A stretch of DNA of 64,000 nt. It comes from Candidatus Latescibacterota bacterium (GTDB taxonomy: Bacteria; Latescibacterota; UBA2968; UBA8231). Location of the stretch: positions 1,472,001-1,536,000 of the forward strand of contig OY730476.1 in NCBI GenBank assembly GCA_963422735.1, read 5' to 3'. Below, piece after piece: positions 1 to 24,186 of the stretch. The number at the start of each line of letters is the position of its first letter. Within the stretch, counting starts at the first letter, position 1. A program made the translations under genes and the position numbers. The notes beneath the pieces are model-generated. The model was not told where the DNA came from. It saw only the letters and a program-made list of their open reading frames with translations, and made no database searches.

Positions 1-36
1 GTAGCGCGAATCTATGTTGAGGGGTTTTATTTTTGT

Positions 37-240
37 TAGGACTTACGCAATCACCATGCGTATAGCCGGAGCTTTGAGTTGTTGTCGCAAATAGTCCGAC
101 AACAACCCGTGCTTGACCTGATAAATGGTTTGCCCTGTTTGAGAGGCCACGTGCTCAAGTCGAATCCAAACTAACAACGCACACCCGATACGATTGCGCA
201 CAATGCGTACCAATCGACATTGACACCGTTCAAGGGCAGC
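37..240 (-). mobile_element. IS701-family transposase C-terminal remnant with right end
   Basis: ERCQCRLVRIVRNRIGCALLVWIRL...TIYQVKHGLLSDYLRQQL matches the IS701-type C-terminus and runs into GCGTAAGTCCTAA; the N-terminal part is missing. Confidence 0.65.
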
Positions 241-410
241 ACAAATTTTCCAAGGCTGGTCTTGGGTCCATGATATCCCTCCATTATTTGGTTGTTTGGA
301 GAAAAAAAAGGACACAAGGCCAGTCTTGTTTCAAGTGGTATGGGATAATCTCAGGTTACGACCGAAAATTCGCATGTAGTATAATCAGACAACAAGAGAG
401 GAGGGTGGCC

Positions 411-620
411 ATGCTCTGCTCCACGCCGGCTGTCAAGTTCACCTATGAGGACTATCAGCACACCCCGGATGACCAGCGCTACGAGTTATTGGACGGAGAA
501 TTGATCATGGCCCTCGCGCCCAACTTAGGACATCAGCGAATTAGCACCCAATTGGGATGGCGGCTCGCTCAATTCGTGGCGGAGAGGGGGCTAGGCGAGG
601 TCTTTTTCGCCCCCTGCGAC
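411..620 (+). pseudogene. Uma2/DUF820 family endonuclease, N-terminal fragment
   Basis: FTYEDY...RYELLDGELIM.AP..HQRI...GEVFFAPCD, then homology stops; GGAGG SD and TATAAT (380-385) upstream. Confidence 0.75.
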
Positions 621-725
621 GAGGCATTCAAAAGAGAGCCGCTGATCCGATTAGAGGGCGGGTGGGCCGATCTAAAAGAGCTTGAGAGCGTGGATGTCTC
701 ACCCGCTCACTCGCTGTCCAAGCAT

Positions 726-760
726 AAAAAAACCGGCCCCTTTTTTCGCTGGGGCCGGTT
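726..760 (-). terminator. Rho-independent terminator-like hairpin
   Basis: 10-bp stem AACCGGCCCC/GGGGCCGGTT with a T-run on the minus strand. Confidence 0.55.
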
Positions 761-764
761 AATC

Positions 765-967
765 CAAGAAACGCGCATGCTGCTGGTAGAAGGCTTTGAA
801 ATTACGATAGGGGGACTGATGAACCAAATCAACAGCGTCATGCTCTCGCTCAAACAGAGTTGACCCGCCCGACGACGCTGCCCGGTCGTGAATTGGTGGC
901 GTATCCACGGCTCTTCAAAGGCTTGGCAAAAGTCATCGATTTGGCAGAACAATTCGACTCAATTCAT
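765..967 (-). mobile_element. IS982-family transposase 5' remnant (stop and frameshift)
   Basis: MN*VELFCQIDDFCQAFE...LCLSESMTLLIWF, then HQSPYRNFKAFY in a shifted frame. Confidence 0.75.
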
Positions 968-1029
968 CGCGAGGGCTCCTCGATGGCTAGGCTTTATGGT
1001 GGGCATACCTACGTTTAGCCAAAAAGGAG

Positions 1030-1090
1030 TCCCGCTGCTTCCATCGCTTTTTAGGGCCGGTTTTTTTGGTTGATGGCAACAGGCAATTAA
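1030..1090 (-). mobile_element. IS982-family transposase 3' remnant
   Basis: Reads LIACCHQPKKPAL, resembling the IS982 C-terminal LIAYCHQPKKPSL. Confidence 0.6.
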
Positions 1091-3699
1091 TTCCCCGGAA
1101 TCCTGAGCAGGCGCGCACCAATAGTATAGCTGCGGGAGTCGGGCGAGTGGAAGTGACGATACGCCGACCGCACGCCGTTGAAATGGCCGAAGTGGCCACC
1201 CCGGATGACGCGACCAAGGCCGGATGTAGGCCCCGGGGGATCAACCTGAGGTGAGCTATTATAATAATCCTCGTCATACCAATCCTGAATCCACTCCCAA
1301 ACATTCCCGTGCATATCATACAAGCCCCAAGGATTCGGCTCCCTACCACCTACCGCTTTCGCTCCTTCATTAGGATAATTATTACCATGATACCACGCAT
1401 AATCCGTCAGTAGGCTCTCGTCATCCCCAAACGACCACCGCGTCTGCGTCCCCGCCCGACACGCATACTCCCACTCCGCCTCCGTCGGAAGACGATACAA
1501 TTCCTCGCCCGCTTCCGCATTCAGACGACCGATAAACTCATGCACTTCATCCCAAGAAATAATCACCGCCGGATGAGATGAATTTGCCTCAACTCTGGCT
1601 CGACCAGACCAAGGCTCTTTATCCATTACCGCCTTCCACTGACCCTGCGTGATCTCATATTTCCCCAACCAAAAACCACGACTAATCTCCACCTCATGCA
1701 CCGGACTTTCATCTTTCCGACCCGTATTCGACCCCATCTGAAACACCCCCGGCTCGATCCACACAAACTCCATTGACGCACCCTCCAGCAGCGAAAACGT
1801 ACGCTCTTCCCCCTCCGCCCCAGTACCAGAGTCATCCGCCCCAGTACCAGAGTCGTCCGCCCCAGTACCAGAGTCGTCCGCCCCAGTACCAGAGTCGTCC
1901 GCCCCAGTACCAGAGTCGTCCGCCCCAGTACCAGAGTCGTCCGCCCCAGTACCAGAGTCGTCCGCCCCAGTACCAGAGTCGTCCATCACATAAATCTCAA
2001 GATTGCCGCCGCGATTAAAGGCGATTTGGGCACCATCGGGAGACCAAGCAGGCTGCACACCTTCGGTTAGCCGCTCCTTATTTGAGCCGTCCACGTTCAT
2101 CACGTAAATGCCGCGGCTACCAGACGAGAAGGCGATTTGGGCACCATCGGGAGACCAAGTAGGAGTCCGATCATCACTACTATTGTAGGTTAGCCGCTCC
2201 TTATTTAAGCCGTCCTTATCCATCACGTAAATCTCATAATTGCCGGCGCGATTAGACGAGAAGGCGATTTGGGCACCATCGGGAGACCAAGCAGGCTGCA
2301 CACCTTCGGTTAGCCGCTCCTTATTTGAGCCGTCCTTATTCATCACGTAAATCTCATAATTGCCGGCGCGATTAGACGAGAAGGCGATTTGGGCACCATC
2401 GGGAGACCAAGCAGGCTCCTTACCTTCGGTTAGCGGCTCCCCATTTGAGCCGTCCTTATCCATCACCTGAATGGTGGTGACGATGCTGTCGCCAGACCGG
2501 AAGCTGCGCGAGAAGGCGATTCGGAGGCCATCGGGAGACCAAGCAGGCAGATCATCCGTAAATTCTTGGTTGGTTTCGGTTAGCCGCTCCTTATTTGAGC
2601 CGTCCTTATCCATCACGTAAATCTCATAATTGCCGGCGCGATTAGACGAGAAGGCGATTTGGGCGCCATCGGGAGACCAAGCAGGCTCCTTATTCGCGGC
2701 TTGGTCGGTTAGCTGGATACCTAAGTCGTCCGAAACCCGTTTCCCGCTCGCTATCCTTTGACCGATCCCCGCAGGCAGTGCCCCATCCAACGGATTCGAT
2801 ATATACCTCATAATCACCAGCACGTCAGTCTCATTGACTTCCCCATCGCCGTTGACATCCCCCAAGAGAATACTGCCGTTGTTCGGCATTGCAATAGACG
2901 GATTGGAGCTGTACATCACTGCGAGCATCGCGTCTTCCAGAACCACCTGCCCATCGTTATTCACATCCCCCAAAATTTCCCCTGCCAACACTTTGTCTCT
3001 CGTCAATGGTGCCGCATCCACTACCAACTCTACCTCTGCCATCCCCACTCGTACTCCAAAAGCTGCATCCGCGTAGGTCGTCAAGCCCTCGCCTGAAACA
3101 ACGAGACCATATTCCTGCTCCGCCGCGTCCGTGGACATAGTCGCCGCTGTCGAGGAAGCCTCCGCCACTATCCCCGCCTGCCCGTCAATGAGCACCATCC
3201 GCTGGGTCTGCCACCCTCCACCCACTGTCAACCGATAGAAATACACCCCAGCGGCCATCGCCTGTCCCGCCGCATCGGTCGCGTCCCACTTCGCCGCGTG
3301 AAAACCGGCCTGCCGCTCCGCGTCCACCAGCGTCGCAATATGCTGTCCCAACACGTTAAACACATCGAGCCGCACGTGCGTAGCCATGGGCAGTTGATAG
3401 GGGATCACGGTCGAAGGGTTGAATGGGTTGGGGTAATTCTGTCCTAGGGCAAATCCCTGCGGCAATGCCGGCCCGCCCAACGACGCCAGCGGCACCGCGA
3501 AATACCCGGACTCATCGGTCATCGCCCGTGCCACCGCGCCTTGATGCAAATCAGCCAAGTCAAAGAGCGTCACTTGTGCCCCGGCCACTGGCCGTCCATT
3601 GGCAAGCCGCACCTGCCCGGAAACAGTGGATGGCTGCGCCGTATGCGCTTGAACAGGAAGCATCAAGCCCATCAGAAATACTATTAGAAATCTCATCAA
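1087..3699 (-). CDS. Secreted multidomain protein: carboxypeptidase-regulatory-like domain with nested FlgD-Ig/CTD-like domain, dockerin, PD40 (TolB-like) repeats, low-complexity linker, C-terminal FGE-sulfatase (CLec) domain
   Basis: Signal peptide; QNYPNPFNPST; GDVNNDG/GDVNGDG; repeated PAWSPDG; RLPTEAEWEYACRAG and NPWGLYDMHGNVWEW. Confidence 0.85.
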   Translation of the reverse strand: MMRFLIVFLMGLMLPVQAHTAQPSTVSGQVRLANGRPVAGAQVTLFDLADLHQGAVARAMTDESGYFAVPLASLGGPALPQGFALGQNYPNPFNPSTVIPYQLPMATHVRLDVFNVLGQHIATLVDAERQAGFHAAKWDATDAAGQAMAAGVYFYRLTVGGGWQTQRMVLIDGQAGIVAEASSTAATMSTDAAEQEYGLVVSGEGLTTYADAAFGVRVGMAEVELVVDAAPLTRDKVLAGEILGDVNNDGQVVLEDAMLAVMYSSNPSIAMPNNGSILLGDVNGDGEVNETDVLVIMRYISNPLDGALPAGIGQRIASGKRVSDDLGIQLTDQAANKEPAWSPDGAQIAFSSNRAGNYEIYVMDKDGSNKERLTETNQEFTDDLPAWSPDGLRIAFSRSFRSGDSIVTTIQVMDKDGSNGEPLTEGKEPAWSPDGAQIAFSSNRAGNYEIYVMNKDGSNKERLTEGVQPAWSPDGAQIAFSSNRAGNYEIYVMDKDGLNKERLTYNSSDDRTPTWSPDGAQIAFSSGSRGIYVMNVDGSNKERLTEGVQPAWSPDGAQIAFNRGGNLEIYVMDDSGTGADDSGTGADDSGTGADDSGTGADDSGTGADDSGTGADDSGTGADDSGTGAEGEERTFSLLEGASMEFVWIEPGVFQMGSNTGRKDESPVHEVEISRGFWLGKYEITQGQWKAVMDKEPWSGRARVEANSSHPAVIISWDEVHEFIGRLNAEAGEELYRLPTEAEWEYACRAGTQTRWSFGDDESLLTDYAWYHGNNYPNEGAKAVGGREPNPWGLYDMHGNVWEWIQDWYDEDYYNSSPQVDPPGPTSGLGRVIRGGHFGHFNGVRSAYRHFHSPDSRSYTIGARLLRIPGN
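1814..1984. repeat. 21-bp tandem repeat x8 encoding (DDSGTGA)8
   Basis: TCCGCCCCAGTACCAGAGTCR repeated 8 times. Confidence 0.95.
1985..2710 (-). repeat. Near-identical DNA repeats encoding PD40 blades
   Basis: Six WSPDG blades with long stretches of DNA identity. Confidence 0.85.
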
Positions 3700-3714
3700 A
3701 GAATCTCCCTATTT

Positions 3715-3801
3715 ATGTGAGTTCGGGTTAACCGGCTTCTAGTTGGAATCGTCCATTGCTTTTTAGGCCGGTTTTTTAGGTTGGTGGCAATCGGTAATTA
3801 A
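3715..3801 (-). mobile_element. IS982 3' remnant with terminal sequence TAACCCGAACTCACAT
   Basis: LITDCHQPKKPA* followed by the IS982-type end CCCGAACTCAC. Confidence 0.65.
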
Positions 3802-3870
3802 TCCGGAATCCTGAGCAGGGGCATAAAATGGTATAGCTGCGGGGTAAGCGAATACTCCTCGTCATACCAA
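3798..3870 (-). pseudogene. Degenerate, internally deleted copy of the FGE gene 3' end
   Basis: Shares TCCTCGTCATACCAA, GTATAGCTGCGGG and CCGGAATCCTGAGCAGG with 1087-1282. Confidence 0.75.
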
Positions 3871-3946
3871 CTGATACGCTCCTTTTTAGGGAGATGGTGA
3901 GGGGGAGGAATGGAGCTAGATACACTAGCAGTTTGATGTAGAACGT

Positions 3947-3983
3947 TAAGTCCCGGCCAGACCTATTGCCCAGCCGGGACTTA
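3947..3983 (-). terminator. Stem-loop downstream of the 3993..4916 gene
   Basis: 11-bp stem TAAGTCCCGGC/GCCGGGACTTA. Confidence 0.6.
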
Positions 3984-3992
3984 TCACACAGG

Positions 3993-4916
3993 TTAATCGG
4001 CGAATGTCGCCTTGATACGGCCCCAAGAGGAAGTCTCAGTGGAAGAGACAGTCTTAGCCGCCGGCTGCCAATAAGGCGCAGAATCAATCACATAAGGATC
4101 AGGGTCCATAGCCGCCCGCTGCAAAAGCTGAACGCTGTCCCAGTTAAAATCCGCGTACTCAGTCTCTATCCCTGGTTCCGCACGTGCTTGCTCATCTAGT
4201 TCGTCCACAAAACCACCACCCTCATCAGGTGTGCGGATTCTAGAAGACTTCACCTTAATCGTAAACGAAATAATGCGAGAGGGAGAAAGCGCTAGGGACG
4301 CGTCGTGGATTTCAACCAAATTCCTGAAATGCTCATAAAACTCCTTGCGACAACGCCGCTTTCTCTCATCACAGGACCGAAAGTTTTGAGTGCCAGAAGC
4401 AGTCAGTCCGAAAGGCTCGTCTCCGTCCAGTTCGAAAAACTCTCTTAGGGTCTGTGCTTGGCCAATCCTTGCACCGGTATCGTACGTCCTCCCCTCAAGG
4501 AATAGAATATTCTTGAAAAGCGAATCCTTCCTAGCCTTAGCCGGGTCCTCCACATCCTTAGCTGCACCTAAAGGAATCCAAGACGGATACCAAGAGCTTG
4601 TACCATCTCCTCGATTCCTCAGATCCTCCCTTAAGAAAGCCTTAGCTGCTTCAATCCGATCCAGATTGTCCTGAGTCACCTGATCTATTTGCCATTTCCT
4701 CGCTGGAGTAAAATCACGCTCGAAAGTCACCCAAGTTAAAGGGTCCTTCCACTTGTCTATATACTCCAACACTTCCGGCGCAAGTTGCTCATCAATAGGA
4801 TCCACCATATAGAAAGCAACCGTCTCCCAAGTCTCCTCCTGAGCGAACGACACGTTCGGAGCGAACAACATGCAAAGAAAAAGGGCAACCATTCGGCCCC
4901 CGTTAAACGTAGCCAT
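3993..4916 (-). CDS. Secreted hypothetical protein with C-terminal SSWGRIKATF tail
   Basis: GAGGAGG SD; signal peptide ending SFA-QE; lower GC than flanks. Confidence 0.75.
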   Translation of the reverse strand: MATFNGGRMVALFLCMLFAPNVSFAQEETWETVAFYMVDPIDEQLAPEVLEYIDKWKDPLTWVTFERDFTPARKWQIDQVTQDNLDRIEAAKAFLREDLRNRGDGTSSWYPSWIPLGAAKDVEDPAKARKDSLFKNILFLEGRTYDTGARIGQAQTLREFFELDGDEPFGLTASGTQNFRSCDERKRRCRKEFYEHFRNLVEIHDASLALSPSRIISFTIKVKSSRIRTPDEGGGFVDELDEQARAEPGIETEYADFNWDSVQLLQRAAMDPDPYVIDSAPYWQPAAKTVSSTETSSWGRIKATFAD

Positions 4917-5084
4917 TGTTAGGCCTCCTCTAAGTCTTGCCAATAAGTGATTTTCAAGTAATCACCCTTTGGCGGTGTGATTGCCCATTTCAACCGATTA
5001 CTGAAACAGGCGACGAAAAATGCATTTGTAACCAATGGTGCTAGCAGCATAATTTTATTTTGAGGGGAGATGGGGGATAACGTA

Positions 5085-5100
5085 ACGTGAGTTCGGGTTA
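5085..5100 (-). mobile_element. Solo IS982-type terminal sequence
   Basis: ACGTGAGTTCGGGTTA, 15/16 identical to 3715-3730. Confidence 0.55.
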
Positions 5101-5265
5101 AGGGCCTCCTTTTTAGCTGCACTTGTAGGAAGTCCACTACACTGTACTACGACTGTCTAGCCATTGAGGCGTACAGACGAATCCCTCGCAGCGAAATCCA
5201 GCCCTACGACGTCCCCCGCCGACAGCAGCTAGAAATGCCGAGGATAGTTTCCGCTTATACGTAGG

Positions 5266-5356
5266 ACCTATCCCCCCCGGCCTCCTTGCCGACGCGGTAA
5301 GGAAGAGCGGTAGCCGTTCCCCCTTCCTGGGAGGAAGAGGGGCTAGGGGGGTAGGT
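5266..5356. repeat. REP-like palindromic dumbbell element
   Basis: ACCTATCCCCC...GGGGGTAGGT outer IR with internal hairpins such as CTTCCT-ggg-AGGAAG. Confidence 0.45.
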
Positions 5357-5390
5357 TGATGAGCGCTAGAACTTAGTGCTCGAGAAGAAT

Positions 5391-5414
5391 GGGGGGGGGG
5401 GGGGGGGGGGGGGG
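5391..5414. repeat. Poly-G run (24 nt)
   Basis: Homopolymer seen directly; may be an artefact. Confidence 0.9.
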
Positions 5415-5749
5415 TAACTTGTTGTTTTTTAACGACTTACGGCAATAAAATTCGACAACATTTTCAAGCATAGAACAAACCATCCCAGCAAGCGCCGCTC
5501 CCTGCGGTGGTATTCTTTCTAATTCTGATATTGAATTTGTGCCCATGCCCTGTTCATCCTAAAACGTTCCGCAATGTGTGAATTAGATTTTATAGCCTTC
5601 AAAACGAGATGTCAAGCAAAAGTTTTCCCAACCGCGAAATTCCTCTTACAATATATAGCCAATATAGCCGCCATGAACAGCGGCAGTTACAAGACGGGGA
5701 CATACCCGACCAAACGGTAGGTTCTTAGGCACTAAAAAAGGAGGATATC

Positions 5750-8392
5750 ATGGCTGGCGCGAAATCGTTGCAGCGGCTCTGCCGCCAAACCTTGCCGCTG
5801 ATGTTGCAGCAGGCGAATGGGCAGGAGATGATGGCGGCGGTGCGGGAAGTGGTCGCTACCGATCGCTGGAACTCGTTTGACCGCTTTCGCGAGACGACCG
5901 CAACGCTGGTGCGGCACTACGAGGCCGCCGGCGCACGCGTGGAGGTCGAGTCCATCCAGACCGGAGGGCGGCTTGGGTCGGGCCGATGGATCATCCGCGA
6001 GGCCGCCGATGTCGCGGGCGCGACCGTAGATGTGGTACATCCGCTCGCCGAGCGAGTGCTGAATTGGCAGGAGAATCCCTGGCACATCATCCAGTGGAGC
6101 GCGGCGACCCCGGCGAGCGGCTCGCGGCTGCGGCTAGTGATTCTCGATCGAGTTGAAGATATCCAACGACAGCCAACCGACGGACTCAGTGGTACAATCG
6201 CGCTGACCAAGCTAGACCCGCGCGCTCACCTCGGTCTTTTGGCCGCCAAGGGGGCCGCCGCAGTCATCACCGACCGGCCGGTGCCCAACCTGCCCGGCGC
6301 AGTGGCGTGGAGCAAATTCGGGTGGGGCGCAATTCCCCTAGAACATGCTGCGGCGCGGTTGGTGGGCTTTGCGATCTCTGAGCAGCAGGGGGAGCGGCTG
6401 CGGCGGCTCGCGCAGGAGCACGGCCCCTTAACCCTGCACGTAAGAGCCGACATCCGCAAATACGTCGGCAGCCACGACGTGGTCAGCGGCGTCATTGAGG
6501 GAGCAAGCGATCCACAGGACGAAGTGTGGGCCATTGCTCACAACGCCGAGCCGGGGGCCATAGACAACGCTTCGGGCGTGGCCACCACCCTAGAGATCGC
6601 TCGCGTGATCGAAGGGCTTATCCGGGCGGGAAAAATCGCGCGCCCCAAGCGCACCATTCGCCTGCTCAACGCCTATGAGTGCTATGGTTTTTTCGCCTAT
6701 CTAGAAAAGATGCGGCGCTTGCAGACCCCTTTGGCCGGCGCGTGTATCGACACGCTCGGCTCCCAGCCCGCCGTCTGCGATGGCCGGCTGGAGTGGCACG
6801 CAACGATTCCCATGTCGGCTGGTTTCGTCGACCGGGTCGGCGCGGCTATCTTGCGGGCCGGGGTGCGGCAACACAAGCCAGGCTATCGAGTGCATCTAGA
6901 GCGATTTATGTCGACGTCTGACACCTTGATCGGCGACCCCCAATATGGATTTCCCTGCCCTTGGATCACCACGCATCACCGCAAGAGCGGGCGCGGCTTC
7001 GACGCCTACCACTCTTCGGCCGACGTGGAAGCACTGCTCAGCCCGCAGGGGCTGGAGACCTGTGCGGCCTCAATGGCGGCCTATCTATACTATTTGGCCG
7101 ACATGGGCAGCCGCGAAGTGGAGGAGCTGGTCTGCACCGAAACCCAGTACTTTCTCGCGGCATTGCAAAAGAAAAAGCGGCCCCGAGCCGAGGCCGAATA
7201 CGTGCGCGAGGCGCACAGCCGCAGCGTGCGGCGGCTCGTGCGTTGGCTCTGGGGGGGCAATCGACGCGAGATCTTGGAGGCCATGGACGATAGCGAGCGG
7301 CAAGTGGCGGCCGCAGCCGCCGAGGCCGCGCTGCCGGGCAAGCGAGTGCGGCGCACGGCTCAAGCGCGGCTGGTGCCACGGCGCACGGCCGTACTCTCAC
7401 CGACAGCCGAGAATGCGCCGGCCGCGATCAATGCGCGCATCGCGGCCGCAAAGCTACCGCCATGGGCGCTGTTTTGGGCCGACGGACGCCGGAGTTTGGG
7501 CGAAATCGCCGAGCGCATCGCCTGCGAGGAAGCGGACTATCGGACCGGGCCTCGGGCAGGAGGCACCGTCGCTGTCGCTCGAGTACACGAGTACTTCGCA
7601 GCACACGCCGAATTGGGCTACGCCGAGTTGGTCGACCCGGTCAACGCGATCGGCTGCAGGGAACTAGTGAGGGATTTGCGCCGCTTGGGGGTCGCACCGG
7701 GTATGGACCTGATGGTACACAGCTCCCTATCGGCCATCGGCTTTGTGGAGGGCGGTGCCGAGACCGTCGTCGATGCGCTCTTGCAGGCGGTCGGCAAGCG
7801 CGGAACCCTACTGGCCCCTTCGTTCAATCACCGCGCGGCCGCGGTTTTCAACCCGCTAACCACGCCCACTACCAACGGCGCGATTCCAGACGCGCTGTGG
7901 CGTCGCACCGAGGCAGAGCGCAGCATGCATCCAACCCATGCGGTGGCGGCGATTGGGCCGCGGGCCAGCGACTATTGCCGCGGCCATCTCGAAGCCGGCA
8001 TCTGGGCCGCAGACAGCCCGATCGGCAAATTGGTGCACGACGGCGGCTACATCCTCGCACTGGGCACGACGCACGACACCAGCACGGCTTATCACGTGGC
8101 CGAGCTGTCCGTACCCTGCGGCTGCATCGCATCTTTTGCCCTCAAGGACCAGGTCGTGCGCGAAAATGGGACTGTGGACGAGGTCTTGGGGCTGGCCTTT
8201 CGCAGCGGCCCCTGCCCAGTCCCCACCCACAAGCTGGACTCAACGCTCGACCGGAGAAAGTTGCAGCGGCGGGGCAAGGTCGGGCAGGCCGAATGCGAAT
8301 TGGTGAAGGCCCACGACCTGTGGCGGGTGCGGCGCGAACACCTGCGGCACGTCTGTCCCACCTGCACCGTTAAGCCCCAAGCCACGCGGTGA
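5750..8392 (+). CDS. M28/DUF4910-like metallopeptidase (PA insert, wHTH) fused to AAC(3)-family N-acetyltransferase
   Basis: AHN..GAIDNASG, IDTLG, YHSSAD, DGRRSLGEIAE; then MVHSSLSAIG, RSMHPTHAVAAIG, HVAE; AGGAGG SD. Confidence 0.8.
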   Translation: MAGAKSLQRLCRQTLPLMLQQANGQEMMAAVREVVATDRWNSFDRFRETTATLVRHYEAAGARVEVESIQTGGRLGSGRWIIREAADVAGATVDVVHPLAERVLNWQENPWHIIQWSAATPASGSRLRLVILDRVEDIQRQPTDGLSGTIALTKLDPRAHLGLLAAKGAAAVITDRPVPNLPGAVAWSKFGWGAIPLEHAAARLVGFAISEQQGERLRRLAQEHGPLTLHVRADIRKYVGSHDVVSGVIEGASDPQDEVWAIAHNAEPGAIDNASGVATTLEIARVIEGLIRAGKIARPKRTIRLLNAYECYGFFAYLEKMRRLQTPLAGACIDTLGSQPAVCDGRLEWHATIPMSAGFVDRVGAAILRAGVRQHKPGYRVHLERFMSTSDTLIGDPQYGFPCPWITTHHRKSGRGFDAYHSSADVEALLSPQGLETCAASMAAYLYYLADMGSREVEELVCTETQYFLAALQKKKRPRAEAEYVREAHSRSVRRLVRWLWGGNRREILEAMDDSERQVAAAAAEAALPGKRVRRTAQARLVPRRTAVLSPTAENAPAAINARIAAAKLPPWALFWADGRRSLGEIAERIACEEADYRTGPRAGGTVAVARVHEYFAAHAELGYAELVDPVNAIGCRELVRDLRRLGVAPGMDLMVHSSLSAIGFVEGGAETVVDALLQAVGKRGTLLAPSFNHRAAAVFNPLTTPTTNGAIPDALWRRTEAERSMHPTHAVAAIGPRASDYCRGHLEAGIWAADSPIGKLVHDGGYILALGTTHDTSTAYHVAELSVPCGCIASFALKDQVVRENGTVDEVLGLAFRSGPCPVPTHKLDSTLDRRKLQRRGKVGQAECELVKAHDLWRVRREHLRHVCPTCTVKPQATR

Positions 8393-17594: not shown

Positions 17595-19994
17595 ATGTCC
17601 GCGAGCAAAAAGATGCGACGGCGACCCGCGCTGTGGACGGCCCTCGGATTCGGAATCGGCATCTTCTTGGGGCGATCTGTGGAGGTGGGCTTGGTCACAG
17701 CGACGGCCCTGAGCGGGTTGGCCTTTCTCGGCGCGGCCGCAGGCTTCTACCGCAAGGCGTGTTGGGCAGGTTGGATGCTGTGGGGAGTCGCCGTCCTGTT
17801 AGGCGCACTGCGTTACCACATCGACACAGCCCTGTCCCCTTTGCCACACCTAGTCGCGCTCAAGGTCTTTGACCAGCGCGGCGTGGTCACCGGGTGCATC
17901 GTCCAAGAGCCGGAGCGCAGTGACGAGCGAGTGCGCTTTGCCATAGAACTGGAACAGGTGGTCGCCGACAGCACCATCTACCACTTGGGCGGGCAGGTGC
18001 TAGTCACGGTAAAAGACGTGTACTTGCCGGCGGATTACGGCGACCGCGTGTCCCTGCGCGGGAGGCTCCAAAGGCCCCGTGCAGTGCGGAATCCTGGTGC
18101 CTTCGACTACCGGGCCTTTTTGGCCCAGCAGGACATCTACGGCACGCTTTTCGTCGGCAAACCCGAGCAGGTCGTTTCCGTAGAGCACTTGCCCGGACAC
18201 TGGCTGTACGAGGGCGTAGTGCTGCCTCTCAGACGCGCCGTGCGCCAGAGCATTGAGCGCAACCTCGCAGGAGCACCGGCCGGACTGTTGTTGGGCGTAC
18301 TCTTGGGAGAGAAGCAGCGAATTCCCGAGGAGGTGCGCGCTGCGTTTCGCAGCACCGGGCTGGCGCACGCGCTCGTGGTCAGCGGACTCCACGTCGGGAT
18401 GGTGGGCGGGTTCTTCTTCTTTGGGTTCCGGCTCCTGCGGCTCGCCGACCGACCGAGTTCCGCGGCCACCATCGTCGCGCTGGTGCTCTATGCCCTCGCA
18501 ACCGGGGCACAGGTGCCGGTAGTGCGGGCGGTGCTGATGGGAGCGGTGGTGCTGTTGGGGCGGGTGCTCCGGCGGCAGGGCGACATCTACAACACTCTTG
18601 GGCTGGCGGCACTAGCGATTTTGGTGATATGGCCGGAGAGTCCGTGGAGTCTGAGCTTCCAGCTCTCCTTTGGCGCGACGTGGGCCATCGTCGCCTTGCA
18701 CGGACCGCTCGCCTCGCTTTTCCCCGCAGCCTCTCAGCGCGCCGACAGCCGGGTAGGTCGCTTTCTCGTCAGCCCGCTGTGCGCCACGCTGGCGGCCCAA
18801 CTCGGCACTGGGCCTTTGATCGCCTATTCCTTTCAGCAGCTAGCATTGGGGGCCGTGGTGGCCAATATAGTGGTAGTGCCGCTCTTGGCGCTCGCCGTGG
18901 GCCTAGGGCTGCTAGCCGCGTTGATGGGTTGGATTTTGCCTTGGGTCGCCACTGCGTTCAACGCCGCCAATTACCTAGTCCTCGTGGGGCTGATCGAGTT
19001 GGTCTCGTGGTGGGCCTCGCTGCCCTTTGCATCCGTGGTGGTGCCGCGTCCGGGGGGGATCTTTGTCGCACTGGCCGCCGCGCTCTGCCTGCTCGGCCCA
19101 CTTTTGTCCCACAGGGCGTGGGCGCGCAAAGCCGCCATTTTCGCAGCACTCGTCTGGTTCAATGTCGCGGTGTGGACCTACGCGCTCCGCTCCCGCGACT
19201 TGGAGATCGTCTTTTTGGACGTGGGCCAAGGCGACGCGGCGTTTGTGCGCTTCCCCGACGGCAAGACCATGGTTGTCGATGGCGGCGAACGCAGCGAATA
19301 CTTCGACTACGGCGAACAGGTGCTGCTGCCTTTCTTGCGCTACATGGGCGTCCGGCGGGTCGATGTCGTCGTGGCCTCGCATCCACACAACGACCACATC
19401 GGCGGCCTGGTAGCCCTGTTGGAGCAAATGGAAGTCGGCCACTTTCTCGACAGTGGGCAGGTCTATGGCTCGTGGACGGCGCGGCGGCTGCGGGAACTCA
19501 TGGCCGAGCGGGGCGTGCGCTACCACCGGGTCGCGGCGGGCGACCGCTTGGCGGGCTTGGGCGGGGTCGCGGCGCTTGTCCTACATCCAACTGCGGACTT
19601 TGTCGATGCAGACGGCAACTCCCCTTTTGGCCTCAACAACGGCTCGGTGGCCTTTAGCTTGCAGCACGGAACCGTGCGGGTGCTCTTTACCGGCGACGTA
19701 GAGCAGGAGGCCGACCCGGCGATCCTCGCTTGGGGACCGCGGCTGCAGGCGTACTTGCTCAAGGTGGCTCACCACGGCTCGCGCACCTCGTCGCAGCCAC
19801 TTTTCGTCGCGGCAGTCGCGCCCGCAGTGGCAGTGATGTCGCTGGGGGAGGGCAACAAGTTCAAGCACCCAGCCCCCGAGGTCGTCGCACGCTACGCAGC
19901 GCACGGGGCGCGCGTACTGCGCACCGATCACATCGGCGCGGTGCAAGTGCGGATTGACGGCGCGGGCATGGTCGTGCAAACGATGATGGAATGA
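17595..19994 (+). CDS. comEC: Competence protein ComEC/Rec2
   Basis: RNPGAFDY, GLAHALVVSGLHVG, SFQLSF, DVGQGD, SHPHNDHIGG, KVAHHGS. Confidence 0.95.
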   Translation: MSASKKMRRRPALWTALGFGIGIFLGRSVEVGLVTATALSGLAFLGAAAGFYRKACWAGWMLWGVAVLLGALRYHIDTALSPLPHLVALKVFDQRGVVTGCIVQEPERSDERVRFAIELEQVVADSTIYHLGGQVLVTVKDVYLPADYGDRVSLRGRLQRPRAVRNPGAFDYRAFLAQQDIYGTLFVGKPEQVVSVEHLPGHWLYEGVVLPLRRAVRQSIERNLAGAPAGLLLGVLLGEKQRIPEEVRAAFRSTGLAHALVVSGLHVGMVGGFFFFGFRLLRLADRPSSAATIVALVLYALATGAQVPVVRAVLMGAVVLLGRVLRRQGDIYNTLGLAALAILVIWPESPWSLSFQLSFGATWAIVALHGPLASLFPAASQRADSRVGRFLVSPLCATLAAQLGTGPLIAYSFQQLALGAVVANIVVVPLLALAVGLGLLAALMGWILPWVATAFNAANYLVLVGLIELVSWWASLPFASVVVPRPGGIFVALAAALCLLGPLLSHRAWARKAAIFAALVWFNVAVWTYALRSRDLEIVFLDVGQGDAAFVRFPDGKTMVVDGGERSEYFDYGEQVLLPFLRYMGVRRVDVVVASHPHNDHIGGLVALLEQMEVGHFLDSGQVYGSWTARRLRELMAERGVRYHRVAAGDRLAGLGGVAALVLHPTADFVDADGNSPFGLNNGSVAFSLQHGTVRVLFTGDVEQEADPAILAWGPRLQAYLLKVAHHGSRTSSQPLFVAAVAPAVAVMSLGEGNKFKHPAPEVVARYAAHGARVLRTDHIGAVQVRIDGAGMVVQTMME

Positions 19995-20003
19995 GGGATG
20001 CGC

Positions 20004-21062
20004 CTAGGCTTGCAGCCCCAATTCAGGGCACTCAATCAAGGACCGCAGGCGGTCGAGGAAGCGGGCCGCCGCGCCGTTTTCGAGCAATCGGCTCTCAACC
20101 GTCAGGCTCAAAGAGATCAACGCTCGCGGTACCACGCGGCCCTCGCGCACGGCCGGGCGCTCGGCAATGCGCCCCAGTCCCAAAGCGGCTCGGTGAGGAG
20201 GGCGGAGGATGGGAGTAAAGGCGTCAATGCCGTACATGCCGAGATTGGCGATGGCAAAGGTGCCGCCCTGCACGGTCTCCGGCTCCAAGGCGCACCGCCG
20301 CACCTGAAGCGCTAGGGAGCGCGCCGCCGCCGCGAGTTCGGCCCAGCTCTTGGTATGCGCGTCGCGGATGACCGGAGTCGCCAAGCCATCGCCCGTATCT
20401 ACAGCGAGGCTGAGATGGACGGCCTCTGTTCCCGCGGCATTCAACTGAGGATGCTCGATCAAGGCGACGACCGCCAGCTTGGCAATCAGGTGGTGATATG
20501 CAGGTGCCGGCGCATCCTCCGCCTCGAACTGCGGACGCAACGCCACCAGTTCGGTAGCGTCTGCTTCAGTCGTCAGGATCGCAGGGGACGCCTGACCGCT
20601 GCCAGCGGCAGCCGCGCGAACATCGCGCTCGACGATCCGGCCCGTGCGCCCGCTGCCCGTGAGCACGCGCCATTCCACCCCGAACGCCGAGGCCACGCGC
20701 CGGGCGCGGGGGCTGATGGTCGGCCCTGATGAGCGGACCGGCGCAGGCGTTGAGGCCGGCTCTGCTACGGGCGCGGGAGCCGCAGGCGTTGGGGCCGGCG
20801 CGGTCGGCATTTCCTCGCCGGGCTGCAACAGATAGCCCAAGAGGGTGCCCACCGGCACGGTATCGCCGGGCTGGGGCGCGTCCGGAGGGATGCACAGGAT
20901 GCCGCCGGAAAAGGTCTCGATCTCGTTGAGGGCCTTGTCGCTTTCCACCGCAAAGAGGATTTCGCCCACCTCGACCGCGTCGCCATCGGCTTTGAGCCAC
21001 TCGACGAGGGTGCCCTCTTCCATGGTCCATCCCAAGCGGGGCATTGCGATTGCCTCGGCCAT
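20004..21062 (-). CDS. 2-oxoacid dehydrogenase E2-like protein (lipoyl and E3-binding domains; degenerate catalytic domain)
   Basis: VESDKA lipoyl motif; SPRARR..GSGRTGRI; catalytic DHR motif replaced by ESR. Confidence 0.85.
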   Translation of the reverse strand: MAEAIAMPRLGWTMEEGTLVEWLKADGDAVEVGEILFAVESDKALNEIETFSGGILCIPPDAPQPGDTVPVGTLLGYLLQPGEEMPTAPAPTPAAPAPVAEPASTPAPVRSSGPTISPRARRVASAFGVEWRVLTGSGRTGRIVERDVRAAAAGSGQASPAILTTEADATELVALRPQFEAEDAPAPAYHHLIAKLAVVALIEHPQLNAAGTEAVHLSLAVDTGDGLATPVIRDAHTKSWAELAAAARSLALQVRRCALEPETVQGGTFAIANLGMYGIDAFTPILRPPHRAALGLGRIAERPAVREGRVVPRALISLSLTVESRLLENGAAARFLDRLRSLIECPELGLQA

Positions 21063-21072
21063 GCGCTTGCTC

Positions 21073-22050
21073 CTACTCGGCCATCAGGTCGCGGATGGCC
21101 CGGTCTATGTCCTTCCCATTGGGCGCAACCGCGGCCTCTAAGGGCGCACTGTACGGCGTGGGCACGTGTGCGCCGTTGACGCGGCGCACCGGCGCGTCGA
21201 GATCGTCGAAGGCCCGGTCAACCACTTCGGCGGCGATTTCTGCGCCCATGCCGCAGGGAGCAAAGGTCTCATCGGCGATCAGCAGGCGGCCCGTCCGGTG
21301 TACGGATTCGAGCACAGCGTCGATGTCGAGGGGGGACGTAGTGCGGGGGTCAATGACTTCGATCGAGATGCCCTCGCCGGATAGAGCCTCGGCGACTTGG
21401 AGCGTCTCGGGTACCATGGTCGTCAGGGCCACGACGGTCAGGTGCTCGCCGCGGCGGCGCACGGCTGCCTGGCCAAAGGGAATGCAGTACTCCTCTTCTG
21501 GAACTTCGCCACGGGTGTTGAGCAAGGACTTGTGTTCGAGGAAGAGCACTGGGTCGTCGCCGCGCAGGGCCGTCTTGAGCAGGCCCTTGGCGTCGTACGG
21601 GCTAGACGGCACCGCGACCTTGAAGCCGGGCAGATGCGTAAAGATCGGATAGTAGTTGCCCGAGTGATGGGTAGCGGCCGCGCCGCCGACGCCAATGCAG
21701 CCGCGCAGAACGATGGGCATTTTCAGGCGACCGCTGCTCATGTACTGCATCTTGGCGATCTGGTTGATCAGCTCGCCGAACGCATCGAGGATGAAATCCA
21801 AGAACATAAAATCCACAACGGGCCGCGTGCCGGTCATGGCCGCGCCAGCGCACAGGCCGACGAAGCCGCGCTCGCATATCGGGGTGTCGCGTAGGCGCTC
21901 CGGGCCGTACAGATCAAAGAGACCGGTGGTAGTGTTGAAGTTGCCGCCGCGCGGACCAATGCCCTCGCCGACGACGAAAATGGTCTCGTCTCGCGCCATC
22001 TCCTCGGCTAGGGCTTGCCGCGCCGCTTCCACGTACGTGAGTTCGGGCAT
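21073..22050 (-). CDS. TPP-dependent dehydrogenase E1 beta subunit
   Basis: DTPICE.GF.G...GAAMTG.RPV, PSSPYDAKGLL, PVLFLEHK. Confidence 0.93.
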   Translation of the reverse strand: MPELTYVEAARQALAEEMARDETIFVVGEGIGPRGGNFNTTTGLFDLYGPERLRDTPICERGFVGLCAGAAMTGTRPVVDFMFLDFILDAFGELINQIAKMQYMSSGRLKMPIVLRGCIGVGGAAATHHSGNYYPIFTHLPGFKVAVPSSPYDAKGLLKTALRGDDPVLFLEHKSLLNTRGEVPEEEYCIPFGQAAVRRRGEHLTVVALTTMVPETLQVAEALSGEGISIEVIDPRTTSPLDIDAVLESVHRTGRLLIADETFAPCGMGAEIAAEVVDRAFDDLDAPVRRVNGAHVPTPYSAPLEAAVAPNGKDIDRAIRDLMAE

Positions 22051-23048
22051 TACGCGCCGCCCCTTTGGCTAAAGACGTGGTCGGCCACGGTGGCTGGGTC
22101 GGGCCATGGACTGTCGTGGGCAAATTGCAAAGCCTCGGCGATCAGTGCGGTGCCGTCCGCCGCGATCACATCGAGTTCTTCTTGGCAGGCGTGGCTCGCA
22201 TCTAAAAGCCGGTGGGCAAAGGCCGAGATGGGGTCGCGCTTTTTCCAAGCGTCGATTTCCTCGGTGGAGCGGTAGCCTCCGTCGCGCATTCCTTCGGCGT
22301 GTGGCCGGGTGCGGTAGGTCTTGCACTCAAGGAGGGTCGGGCCGCCGCCTTGGCGTGCGCGCGTTACCGCTTCGCCAGCCGCCGCGTACACCGCAGCTAC
22401 GTCGTTGCCGTCGATGGCGATGCCAGGCAGTCCGTACGCTTCGGCGCGGTTGGCCACTTGCGGATTGCGGGTAGTATCGACAAAGGCCACTTCCGTGGCG
22501 TAGAGGTTGTTTTCGCAAACGAAGAGCACTGGCAACTGCCAATTGGTCGCTAGGTTGATGCCCTCGTGGAAGGCACCGTTGGCTACCGCGCCGTCGCCAA
22601 AAAACGCCACGCCGACCTTGGGGACGCCCAATAGTTTAAAGGAGTAGCCAGCGCCGGCGGCTTGCAGGATGCAGGGACCGACGATGCCGCTGGTACCCAT
22701 CATTCCCACTTGCGGCGAGAAAAGGTGCATGGAGCCGCCGCGCCCCTGCGAGCAGCCCGTAGCTTTGCCAAAAAGCTCGGCGATTAGCTCCCTGGGCGGT
22801 ACGCCTTTGGCGAGGGCGTGGCCGTGACCGCGATGCGTACTAAAGACCGCGTCATCGTCGTTGAGATGAGCGCAAACGCCGGTGGCGATGGCCTCCTCGC
22901 CGACGTACGTGTGGCAGGCACCGGGGATCAGACCGGCTTGGTAGGACCGGGCGAGTTGCTCTTCGCAGCGACGGATGACCAACATCTGGCGATAGAGCAC
23001 CAAACAGGTATCCTTGTCGGGCAGAGCTACTTCCGTTGAGGTAGGCAT
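22050..23048 (-). CDS. TPP-dependent dehydrogenase E1 alpha subunit (acetoin/pyruvate type)
   Basis: HTYVGEEA, STHRGHGH, GRGGSMH, GDG..ENN. Confidence 0.93.
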   Translation of the reverse strand: MPTSTEVALPDKDTCLVLYRQMLVIRRCEEQLARSYQAGLIPGACHTYVGEEAIATGVCAHLNDDDAVFSTHRGHGHALAKGVPPRELIAELFGKATGCSQGRGGSMHLFSPQVGMMGTSGIVGPCILQAAGAGYSFKLLGVPKVGVAFFGDGAVANGAFHEGINLATNWQLPVLFVCENNLYATEVAFVDTTRNPQVANRAEAYGLPGIAIDGNDVAAVYAAAGEAVTRARQGGGPTLLECKTYRTRPHAEGMRDGGYRSTEEIDAWKKRDPISAFAHRLLDASHACQEELDVIAADGTALIAEALQFAHDSPWPDPATVADHVFSQRGGA

Positions 23049-23055
23049 GGCGGCG

Positions 23056-23084
23056 AATATAGCGATTGTCCGCCGCCCTGCCAA
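23056..23084 (-). promoter_or_regulatory. Putative leaderless sigma70 promoter of the E1 operon
   Basis: TTGGCA-17nt-TATATT-7nt-ATG, no SD. Confidence 0.5.
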
Positions 23085-23191
23085 AGACGCCCTAAGAAGC
23101 TGTCGCTACAATTCCCGCATTGCGGGCGAGACGCCCGCGCATCCATGAAGTGGAACCGGGAGAAAGTCAGACACTACCGACGGGCAGCCAA

Positions 23192-23400
23192 TCAATGGAC
23201 GCGCGGCAGATGCGGCAGGTGGGCAAAGTGTTGGTCTCGGGAAAAGAGTTGCAGGCCGTGTTCAACCACGAGCGCGGCAATCCAGATATCGTTGGTGGGA
23301 ATGGGCGTACCCTGCTGACGCAACTGGCAAAAGAGTTGGGCATAGTGCCGCGTTGTGGCCTCGCTGGCATAGAGAGCGGACACCCGAGGCCGATTGAGAA
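23192..23400 (-). pseudogene. VapC PIN toxin, C-terminal half
   Basis: YAQLFCQLRQQGTPIPTNDIWIAA...SRDQHF. Confidence 0.8.
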
Positions 23401-23619
23401 AGCTCAGATAGGCATGGCGGCGAATATAGCTTTACCACTTTCACACCGCCTTTTTGCTGAAGGAGTCGTAGTCCAAGTCGTCGCGGGCGTAGGCGTCAAT
23501 GGCGGATTTGGAGCACTTCTGCCCGCGTAGGGGGTTCGCCTTCCCCACTTGAGGTCGCGTATCAAAGCGAGGAATCGAACGTTATCGAATTGTCCGCCAC
23601 CCCGCCAATTAAGGCCCCA

Positions 23620-24186
23620 TCACAAGTCAATCCAGTAGCGCAACTTCCCAATGCGCCGCGCGGGCTTGCGGCCCTCGGCGCGAAATGCTTGGCTGGGCAT
23701 GGCCATCGCGCTCTCGAATTGGCCGCCGTTGTGCTCGATAATTTTGCGCGAGCCAATGTTGTCCGAGTCGCAGGTGACCAACACGCGGTGCAGCCCGAGC
23801 TCCCGCGATACCACTAGCGTCAGGGCGAGGAGGGCCTTGCCGTAGCCGCGGCACCGCCGAGAGGGTCGGATGCTGTAGCCAATGTGTCCTCCGTAGGTGA
23901 GCAAATACGGGGTGCAAAGGTCGGGCCTTATGGAGGTTTGGCCGATGTACTCGCCGTCGTGTACGAACCAGAGCACTCGGTCTGGGTACCGCGCCCGCGA
24001 ACCCGTCGCATCGGCGAGGGCCTTGAGGTCGCGCACGAATTGCGGGAATTGGTCGGCGAGGGAAGCACTGTCGTAACCGAGGGATAGGGCGTACGTCGAG
24101 TCGAAACGGCCTTCGGCTAAGAACTCGGCCGCGCCCTCTAGGAAGCTATCCCGGTACAGGACGGAGGGAGTGGCGAGGGATTGCAT
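23620..24186 (-). CDS. GNAT family acetyltransferase
   Basis: GGHIGYSIRPS.R.RGYG, VLVTCDSDNIGSRKIIE.NGG. Confidence 0.9.
   Translation of the reverse strand: MQSLATPSVLYRDSFLEGAAEFLAEGRFDSTYALSLGYDSASLADQFPQFVRDLKALADATGSRARYPDRVLWFVHDGEYIGQTSIRPDLCTPYLLTYGGHIGYSIRPSRRCRGYGKALLALTLVVSRELGLHRVLVTCDSDNIGSRKIIEHNGGQFESAMAMPSQAFRAEGRKPARRIGKLRYWIDL

Follow-up and report, generated by a model that had tools for sequence, protein, structure and literature searches.

The DNA analysed here, a stretch of 64 kb from contig OY730476.1 (1.472-1.536 Mb; hereafter the window), belongs to the 4.95-Mb genome of a member of the Latescibacterota, a bacterium of soil/sediment type. According to its list of open reading frames (ORFs), the window contains a 2-oxoacid dehydrogenase operon in which three tightly packed minus-strand genes follow one another in the order E1alpha-E1beta-E2. 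The E2 homologue, which is the subject of this study, occupies 20004..21062 (minus strand) and encodes 352 residues without an internal stop; its ATG lies 10 nucleotides past the E1beta stop and is preceded by a GGAG. This agrees with the first-pass annotation of the region, which had described an intact E2 ORF coupled to the E1 genes. The E1alpha gene, encoding the alpha subunit of a thiamine diphosphate-dependent 2-oxoacid dehydrogenase, lies at 22050..23084 (minus strand; Pfam E1_dh, 265 bits); the longest ORF opens with a TTG at 23084, and the ATG at 23048 (332 residues), which is the start in most relatives, is the likely start of the gene ending at 22050. Position 22050 is shared with the E1beta gene (21073..22050, minus strand; 325 residues; Pfam Transket_pyr and Transketolase_C). 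In NCBIfam the E1 pair is closest to the pyruvate dehydrogenase (PDH) E1 of the "y" type, with E1alpha reaching 341 bits against PDH_E1_alph_y, under the cut-off of 394, and E1beta 353.7 bits against PRK09212, over the cut-off of 321.

The E2 homologue has the domain order of the family. An N-terminal lipoyl domain (residues 1-86; 20805..21062, minus strand; PF00364 Biotin_lipoyl, 39.4 bits over residues 4-75) carries the lipoyl lysine Lys43 within a VESDKA motif (codon 20934-20936) and is followed by an Ala/Pro linker, the peripheral-subunit-binding domain (PSBD; residues 114-150; 20613..20723, minus strand; PF02817 E3_binding, 34.6 bits over residues 116-149) and a degenerate catalytic core of the chloramphenicol acetyltransferase (CAT) type (residues 155-352; 20007..20600, minus strand). 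Pfam and the motif thus bear out the earlier statement that the lipoyl lysine and the PSBD are retained. The core matches PF00198 (2-oxoacid_dh) over residues 159-348 with 159 bits, spanning only positions 28-229 of the 232 in the profile.

Within this core both residues of acyl transfer have been replaced. Ala272 (codon 20247-20249, in GGTFAIANLG) stands at the position of the catalytic Ser/Thr, which is Ser or Thr in 69 of 70 canonical relatives, and Ser324 (codon 20091-20093, in VESRLLENG) stands at the position of the catalytic His, which is present in all 70, so that the absence of both residues noted in the first pass is confirmed against a defined set of canonical proteins. The active site is altered further by Glu323 in place of Asp and Asn329 in place of Gly; in the canonical relatives T270, the triplet D323-H324-R325, D328 and G329 are each found in 70/70. 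Directly after the PSBD, moreover, ~21-25 residues are absent relative to the canonical sister clade described below. They make up the first core helix, H1 (R..IA..L..S), and account for the N-terminal arm of the catalytic domain that had been described as shortened; a second deletion relative to the same clade removes 7 residues from a later hairpin. The protein scores far under every NCBIfam E2 equivalog cut-off (183.7 vs 722, 166 vs 445 and 155.9 vs 449), and NF011457, the AcoC-type model, gives 77.9 bits against a cut-off of 307 and aligns with residues 2-163 only. Judged by the features of a PF00198 E2, the protein therefore possesses the lipoyl domain, the PSBD and the CAT-like fold, but neither the His motif, the Ser/Thr motif nor an equivalog score. 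E2 has lost both acyl-transfer residues together with helix H1, and from this we infer that its activity has been lost.

The E2 fold is kept in the predicted structure. An AlphaFold2 model, built from an alignment of 39 rows, has a mean predicted local distance difference test (pLDDT) score of 84, with most of the core above 85; it shows a disordered linker (residues 89-111) and a core that, lacking helix H1, opens directly in a beta strand at residue 161. Foldseek comparisons with E2 cores gave template modelling (TM) scores of 0.72-0.84 (target-normalised), and the best sequence matches in the PDB were DlaT of M. tuberculosis (9y7v), followed by human E3BP (6h60). Prediction of the oligomeric state, which the first pass had suggested as a check, returned a homotrimer of residues 155-352 with an ipSAE of 0.92, compared with 0.38 for the best control; the runs agree in at least 95% of contacts and the partner pLDDT is at least 87. 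In the calibration, the mark was reached by 20/30 solved pairs and by 1/23 single chains; the homotrimer run differs from it in using a custom alignment and three copies, and resemblance to solved E2 trimers may be the source of its pass. The core is probably trimeric.

Conservation of the altered core

The 120 best of 3864 database matches comprise 39 proteins of the clade to which the window E2 belongs (clade A), 11 of a second degenerate clade (clade B) and the 70 canonical relatives, so that the catalytic losses are fixed in 50 of these 120 best matches, all of them from Latescibacterota. Clade A proteins share the motifs of the window E2 and are at least 76% identical to it, while those of clade B are 61-67% identical and have the motifs G-A-TF-A/V-IANLG and FDD-R/Q-..DSG. 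The lysine of the DKA motif is kept in all of the 120 that cover the lipoyl region. A separate set of 80 species-representative genome loci contains 16 of type A, 5 of type B, 2 of a third degenerate type and 57 canonical ones; the type A or B losses thus occur in 21 of the 80 related species genomes, again all Latescibacterota, and the E2 ORF is intact in the window as well as in 21/21 of these loci.

The replacements are not uniform. In clade A the positions read A270, A or V272 (A32/V7), E323, S324, E or K328 and N or S329, and in clade B A or V270, A272, D324 and S329, with the Asp of the DHR motif (position 323) being kept. Position 324 itself is constant within each clade, as Ser in 39/39 clade A proteins and as Asp in 11/11 of clade B. 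By contrast, the Arg of the DHR motif, which is invariant in 70/70 canonical relatives, is represented by R10/G20/E7/P2 in clade A, indicating that the active site itself is unconstrained. How strongly this site is normally held can be seen from the nearest 150 representatives of 50%-identity clusters (1.84 billion proteins), 147 of which keep the His; the three exceptions are the representative of the dead clade itself and two fragments. The substitutions in the window E2 are therefore not due to chance.

Selection was estimated as the ratio of nonsynonymous to synonymous substitutions (dN/dS) by the Nei-Gojobori method within clade A (136 pairs, 105 for ComEC; dS ~0.3). The ratio is 0.073 for E1alpha and 0.060 for E1beta, 0.109 for the lipoyl domain, 0.072 for the PSBD and 0.163 for the core of E2, and 0.147 for the neighbouring ComEC gene. 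The core has a ratio of 0.184 in clade B and of 0.125 in the canonical sister clade, and its dN within clade A is 0.054 as compared with 0.020 for E1. Of the 86 lipoyl-domain positions, moreover, 60 are the same throughout clades A and B. All domains are under long-term purifying selection, and constraint on the dead core is just a little below that on a working core; the core ratios of 0.16-0.18, taken with the intact ORFs, indicate a conserved state and not decay. The earlier note had proposed that its reading would fail if close orthologues retained DHR and TISN and this copy were under relaxed selection; instead the loss is shared by the orthologues, with dN/dS well under 1.

Origin of the degenerate core and its two cassettes

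Three related loci (L025-L027) have the same gene order as the window, namely ComEC, E2, E1beta and E1alpha with a GNAT gene further upstream, and their E1beta and E1alpha are 85% and 82% identical to those of the window, but their E2 (388-394 residues) is canonical. It is 58-60% identical to the window E2, the lipoyl domain and PSBD being nearly the same in both, and it has the motifs GGTFTISNLG and FDHRILDGG as well as helix H1 (388-residue form). Since this syntenic sister clade is canonical, catalysis was lost in an orthologue, within the lineage of the window. A tree of E1alpha and E1beta (78 loci) is in line with this, placing the A and B loci in one shallow clade, with L025-L027 and then L032, both canonical, adjoining. 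Directly upstream of E1alpha and on the same strand, L025 (4722-5855) and L026 (4941-6008) encode a D-isomer-specific 2-hydroxyacid dehydrogenase that resembles glyoxylate/hydroxypyruvate reductases and scores under the NCBIfam cut-offs. A close orthologue of it is missing from the genome of the window, being absent at the locus, and the best homologue elsewhere is 52% identical. The position of this gene hints at the ancestral substrate route.

The third degenerate type is found in the same operon family in two other Latescibacterota genomes (L052:8001-9044 and L071:8001-9047), which branch outside the A/B clade, L025-L027 and L032 in the E1 tree. Here VESDKA and the PSBD are intact as well, PF00198 matches only the last ~65 core residues with 31-36 bits, and the core has the motifs ASPFSV..VA and YD(Y/L)SAVTDA without the His or the Ser motif. 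The one available pair has a dN/dS of 0.07 for the lipoyl domain and of 0.23 for the core. By parsimony, there have been two independent losses of E2 catalysis in one operon family.

Within the A/B clade the dead core comes in two types that have diverged deeply, A (VES.LLENG) and B (FDD..DSG), inside operons that are otherwise ~95% identical. Between A and B, dS is ~0.33 for E1alpha, E1beta and ComEC and 0.26 for the lipoyl domain, as compared with 1.27 for the core, where dN is 0.34 and dN/dS 0.27. In core trees A and B are reciprocally monophyletic on long stems; in trees of E1 and of the lipoyl domain plus PSBD they are interleaved, with B-type L021, for example, being sister to A-type L007. 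Nucleotide identity between these two loci in a sliding comparison is 91-100% from the E1alpha start to the end of the PSBD, 58-68% from there to the E2 stop, and ~91% again in ComEC. Indeed, the nucleotide sites by which A and B can be told apart number 129, every one of them at or after codon 154 and none within the first 150 codons (22 genes), and a chimeric core was found in 0/22 of the genes examined. The breakpoint is thus sharp, at codon ~151-154, and the cassette runs to the E2 stop (~20004-20603 in the window; loci L005-L024 and L057). The left breakpoint differs among the B loci, the linker and PSBD also being divergent in L057 and not in L021. The cassettes have thus been swapped by recombination, and the variation in the left breakpoint points to several such events.

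The two types also differ in what follows the E2 gene. In 17/17 A loci, the window included, E2 abuts ComEC, and in the window the two convergent genes (ComEC, 17595..19994) have their stops 9 nucleotides apart. By contrast, in 5/5 B loci the two genes are set apart by 0.5-3.8 kb of additional, variable DNA, which contains a 231-residue ORF, DUF6864 genes, or arylsulfotransferase-like genes together with a DDE transposase. The transposase (PF13612; L023:10823-11368) lies among arylsulfotransferase-like genes in the gap of a B locus, suggesting that the gap is an insertion hot spot.

As for the age of the dead state, the H1 deletion and the replacement of T270 and S272 are common to A and B, while the His is replaced by different residues and the NPPQ segment is rewritten differently in the two. 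The shared changes, with a core dS of 1.27 against ~0.33 in the flanks, indicate that the dead state predates the A/B split; on these divergence estimates its age is several times that of the species group in which the dead E2 is found today.

Neighbouring genes, expression and other E2 and E3 genes

The constant unit across the loci consists of E1alpha, E1beta and E2 only. A search for co-conserved partner genes, suggested in the first pass, was negative: in the flanks of more than 40 loci no thioesterase, hydrolase, acceptor or other partner gene is co-conserved with the operon. The flanks vary and contain genes for extracytoplasmic function (ECF) sigma and anti-sigma factors, PIN, ABC ATPase, OEP and DUF6864 proteins, arylsulfotransferase-like proteins and DDE transposases. 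In the window a GNAT acetyltransferase gene (PF13302/PF00583; 23620-24234, minus strand) lies upstream of E1alpha, with a 136-residue ORF between them (23120-23530, plus strand) that has tblastn matches of 87-90% in L011 and L057. A GNAT gene is found near the operon in many relatives, in part of the loci only and with variable inserts in between (ECF sigma/anti-sigma, PIN, ABC). Elsewhere in the window, positions 1-6000 have a G+C content of 0.52-0.55, as compared with ~0.60-0.66 across most of it, and are possibly foreign or differently composed DNA.

A scan of 19800-23700 was uninformative, giving one promoter-like site at 23084-23056 (shuffle mean 0.7) and one terminator-like site within E1alpha (shuffle mean 3.2). 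Contigs from three metatranscriptome libraries of two studies, which derive from relatives (90-95% alike) and not from this strain, cover parts of all three genes. The core region 20004-20457 is covered (X17 and X19), and one contig of 2121 nucleotides (X18) spans 20805-22925, from the lipoyl region of E2 through E1beta into E1alpha. Such contigs carry neither strand nor level and may contain DNA carry-over, X7 is RNA by guess, and uncovered bins (e.g. 20519-20621 for X19 and 20004-20724 for both X7 and X18) are uninformative; together they give a weak hint that the operon is transcribed in relatives.

No E3 gene is present in the window, in agreement with the earlier remark that none adjoins the operon; the four PF02852 matches of the genome lie at 0.43, 1.89, 3.30 and 4.51 Mb. 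An AceE-type E1 (886 residues) is encoded with an E2 and an E3 at ~3.296 Mb, SucA with an E2 and an E3 at ~4.515 Mb, and a further E3 at ~426 kb, the genome having four E3-like genes altogether. LipA and two LplA/LipB-type genes are present as well. A second E1alpha-beta pair (G000:C1:70490-72494; L085, ~71 kb), the E1alpha of which is 41% identical to that of the window, is followed by a short-chain dehydrogenase/reductase gene and has no adjoining E2. An orphan canonical E2 of 419 residues (G000:C1:678910-680169; L086:8910-10169, ~679 kb) lies beside FtsH without an adjoining E1; its identity is 31% with the dead E2 and 37% with the sister-clade E2. The second E1alpha-beta and the orphan E2 may form a split complex. 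The proposed search for a canonical E2 and E3 elsewhere has thus yielded three canonical E2s and several E3s, so that an acyl-lipoyl arm loaded by the operon's E1 could be discharged to CoA in trans.

Across 11 genomes, the AceF-type and the orphan canonical E2 are present in 5/5 of the examined genomes with a degenerate operon E2 (G000, G001, G002, G006 and G007). Among the six with a canonical operon E2, three (G004, G008 and G009) have only a SucB-type E2 besides and three (G003, G005 and G010) have four E2s. Degeneration is seen only where other E2s exist, and redundancy alone does not force the loss. That a newly gained canonical E2 took over after the loss can be ruled out, since the canonical genome G003 already has the same four E2s.

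Possible function of the degenerate E2

The third gene of the operon is best read as a pseudo-E2 in which acyl transfer to CoA has been lost or almost lost, and which would be retained as a lipoyl-carrying, subunit-tethering and trimer-forming scaffold for its own E1alpha-beta, analogous to E3BP and of independent origin in the Latescibacterota; we put the chances of this reading a little better than even. E1alpha-beta would dock on the conserved PSBD, decarboxylate a pyruvate-like 2-oxoacid and reductively acylate lipoyl-Lys43. The acyl-dihydrolipoyl arm would not be discharged at its own core but in trans, most likely at a canonical E2 core (AceF-type or the orphan E2) and less likely by hydrolysis, and one of the E3s of the genome, bound to the same PSBD, would then re-oxidise the arm. 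The acyl group could thus leave by discharge in trans at a canonical core, by hydrolysis or transfer to another acceptor, or through residual activity of the core, the first route being favoured. Of the non-canonical system sketched in the first-pass annotation, the lipoyl carrier or scaffold stands as the best reading, while hydrolysis or transfer to a non-CoA acceptor finds no support in the gene neighbourhood, where the search for a co-conserved thioesterase or acceptor gene was negative.

The AcoC-type E2 of acetoin dehydrogenase consists of a lipoyl domain and an alpha/beta-hydrolase; it is likewise a lipoyl protein linked to E1alpha-beta, the C-terminal part of which is not a canonical CAT-type transferase, but the C-terminal domain of the window E2 is a degenerate CAT-type core and not a hydrolase. 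The canonical E2s of E1alpha-beta-type complexes (PDH, branched-chain 2-oxoacid dehydrogenase (BCKDH) and acetoin dehydrogenase; e.g. L025-L027 and P0048-P0111) have the orthologous position and the same fold, with H1 and the hairpin present in the 388 residues of the sister E2 and both segments missing from the 352 of the window E2. Mitochondrial E3BP (protein X) has the same order of lipoyl domain, PSBD and E2-like core, and the lipoyl lysine is kept in both proteins. An excerpt of PMC10156792 describes E3BP as having E2 topology while being catalytically inactive and retaining its lipoyl domain, and the window E2, with its E2-like topology and a core lacking the His, agrees with the description given there. 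Human E3BP (6h60_A) shows the same His-to-Ser change, reading DSR where the window E2 reads ESR; however, it keeps SISNLG, whereas the window E2 has lost the Ser/Thr and helix H1. The two also differ in origin, as the window E2 nests among Latescibacterota operon E2s with canonical nearest relatives, and in setting, as it is encoded with its own E1alpha-beta as the sole E2 there, while E3BP stands beside a catalytic E2. The likeness to E3BP would thus be a functional analogy, in which integration into mixed cores and E3-specific binding are only putative.

Several observations weigh against the pseudo-E2 reading. In the sister genome G003 the inventory of four E2s is identical and yet the operon E2 is canonical, so that redundancy alone does not explain the loss. 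The E1 and E2 gene counts are balanced (AceE/AceF, SucA/SucB, the second E1alpha-beta with the orphan E2, and this operon), and hence no canonical E2 is obviously spare for this E1. For the predicted trimer interface, conservation between A and B exceeds that of the remainder of the core only slightly and not significantly (22/44 vs 59/154 invariant positions; Fisher p = 0.17). Finally, according to an excerpt of PMC5986005, the H375A and D374A variants of E. coli E2o each cost only 54-fold and H375W costs little, so that residual transfer would be possible, especially in clade B with its retained Asp.

E. coli E2o, in which His and Asp act by hydrogen bonding and a Trp in place of His375 is tolerated (excerpt of PMC5986005), also lends some weight to the alternative that E2 is still an acyltransferase. 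Ser324 and Glu323 in clade A, or Asp323 and Asp324 in clade B, would then stabilise the tetrahedral intermediate in a slow or substrate-shifted complex that shares an E3 with other complexes. The fixation of Ser324 and Asp324 within their clades, core selection that is close to canonical (0.16-0.18 vs 0.125) and the balanced gene counts fit such an enzyme. We nevertheless consider it unlikely: His, Ser/Thr, Thr270, Gly329 and helix H1 were lost together, the His gave way to different residues in A and B, the NPPQ segment was rewritten differently in each and the DHR Arg is free to be R, G, E or P in clade A, while the retention of the His in the cluster representatives shows how strongly working enzymes hold it, and the scores stay far under all E2 equivalog cut-offs.

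Equally doubtful is a new chemistry, in which the acyl group on the lipoyl arm would be released by hydrolysis or handed to an acceptor other than CoA, the enzyme for this being encoded elsewhere, or in which the main task of the lipoyl arm would be that of a dithiol redox relay linking E1/E3 with a further protein. The very strong constraint seen on E1alpha-beta and the lipoyl domain, next to a relaxed E2 active site, would suit this; with a complete AceE-type PDH and a 2-oxoglutarate dehydrogenase present in the genome, the operon need not make acetyl-CoA; and an excerpt of PMC12643935 reports acyl-lipoyl hydrolases from other systems. The AcoC-type E2, in which the lipoyl domain is joined to an alpha/beta-hydrolase, would fit as well. 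However, the variable flanks offer no co-conserved hydrolase, thioesterase or acceptor gene, the nearby GNAT gene is separated by variable inserts and confined to part of the loci, and the match to the AcoC-type model NF011457 is limited to the lipoyl part.

An early pseudogene, that is a recently inactivated copy under relaxed selection, would account for the lost residues, for a core that evolves faster than E1 and for the raised A-vs-B core ratio, but is ruled out, to the point of being hardly credible, by ORFs that are intact in the window and all 21 related dead-type loci, by ratios far from 1, by a dead state older than the A/B split and by a nearly invariant lipoyl domain and PSBD.

The pseudo-E2 reading can be extended to the cassettes, in a form that is speculative and, taken as a whole, improbable. 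Latescibacterota would have evolved a bacterial counterpart of E3BP at least twice, and the dead core, instead of being a passive scaffold, would serve for docking, as a module fitted to a partner that varies (a different E2 core, an enzyme accepting the acyl group or a regulator) and maintained by balancing or partner-specific selection, with A and B as ancient, non-recombining cassette types exchanged between species. If true, 2-oxoacid dehydrogenase complexes would show a mode of evolution that has not been described for them. The two-cassette pattern is in any case a clean natural example of domain-level recombination within a multidomain enzyme gene.

In the excerpt of PMC10156792, inactive E2 paralogues such as E3BP are treated as a eukaryotic invention, and the reason for their inactivity is still debated. 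No description of a catalytically inactive bacterial E2 was found in the open-access literature searched. The protein is best read as a bacterial, independently evolved, E3BP-like pseudo-E2 with a recurrent origin and a dimorphic, recombining core cassette. The operon would offer a simple expressible system, in which the sole E2 beside E1 is inactive yet conserved, canonical orthologues are found one clade away and a second independent case is available, and which would allow the role of a lipoyl-bearing pseudo-E2 and the discharge of acyl-lipoyl arms in trans to be tested. It is also a warning for annotation: automatic naming calls such genes "dihydrolipoamide acetyltransferase" or "pyruvate dehydrogenase E2 component", and in metabolic reconstructions the Latescibacterota would be credited with a PDH or BCKDH that may not make acyl-CoA.

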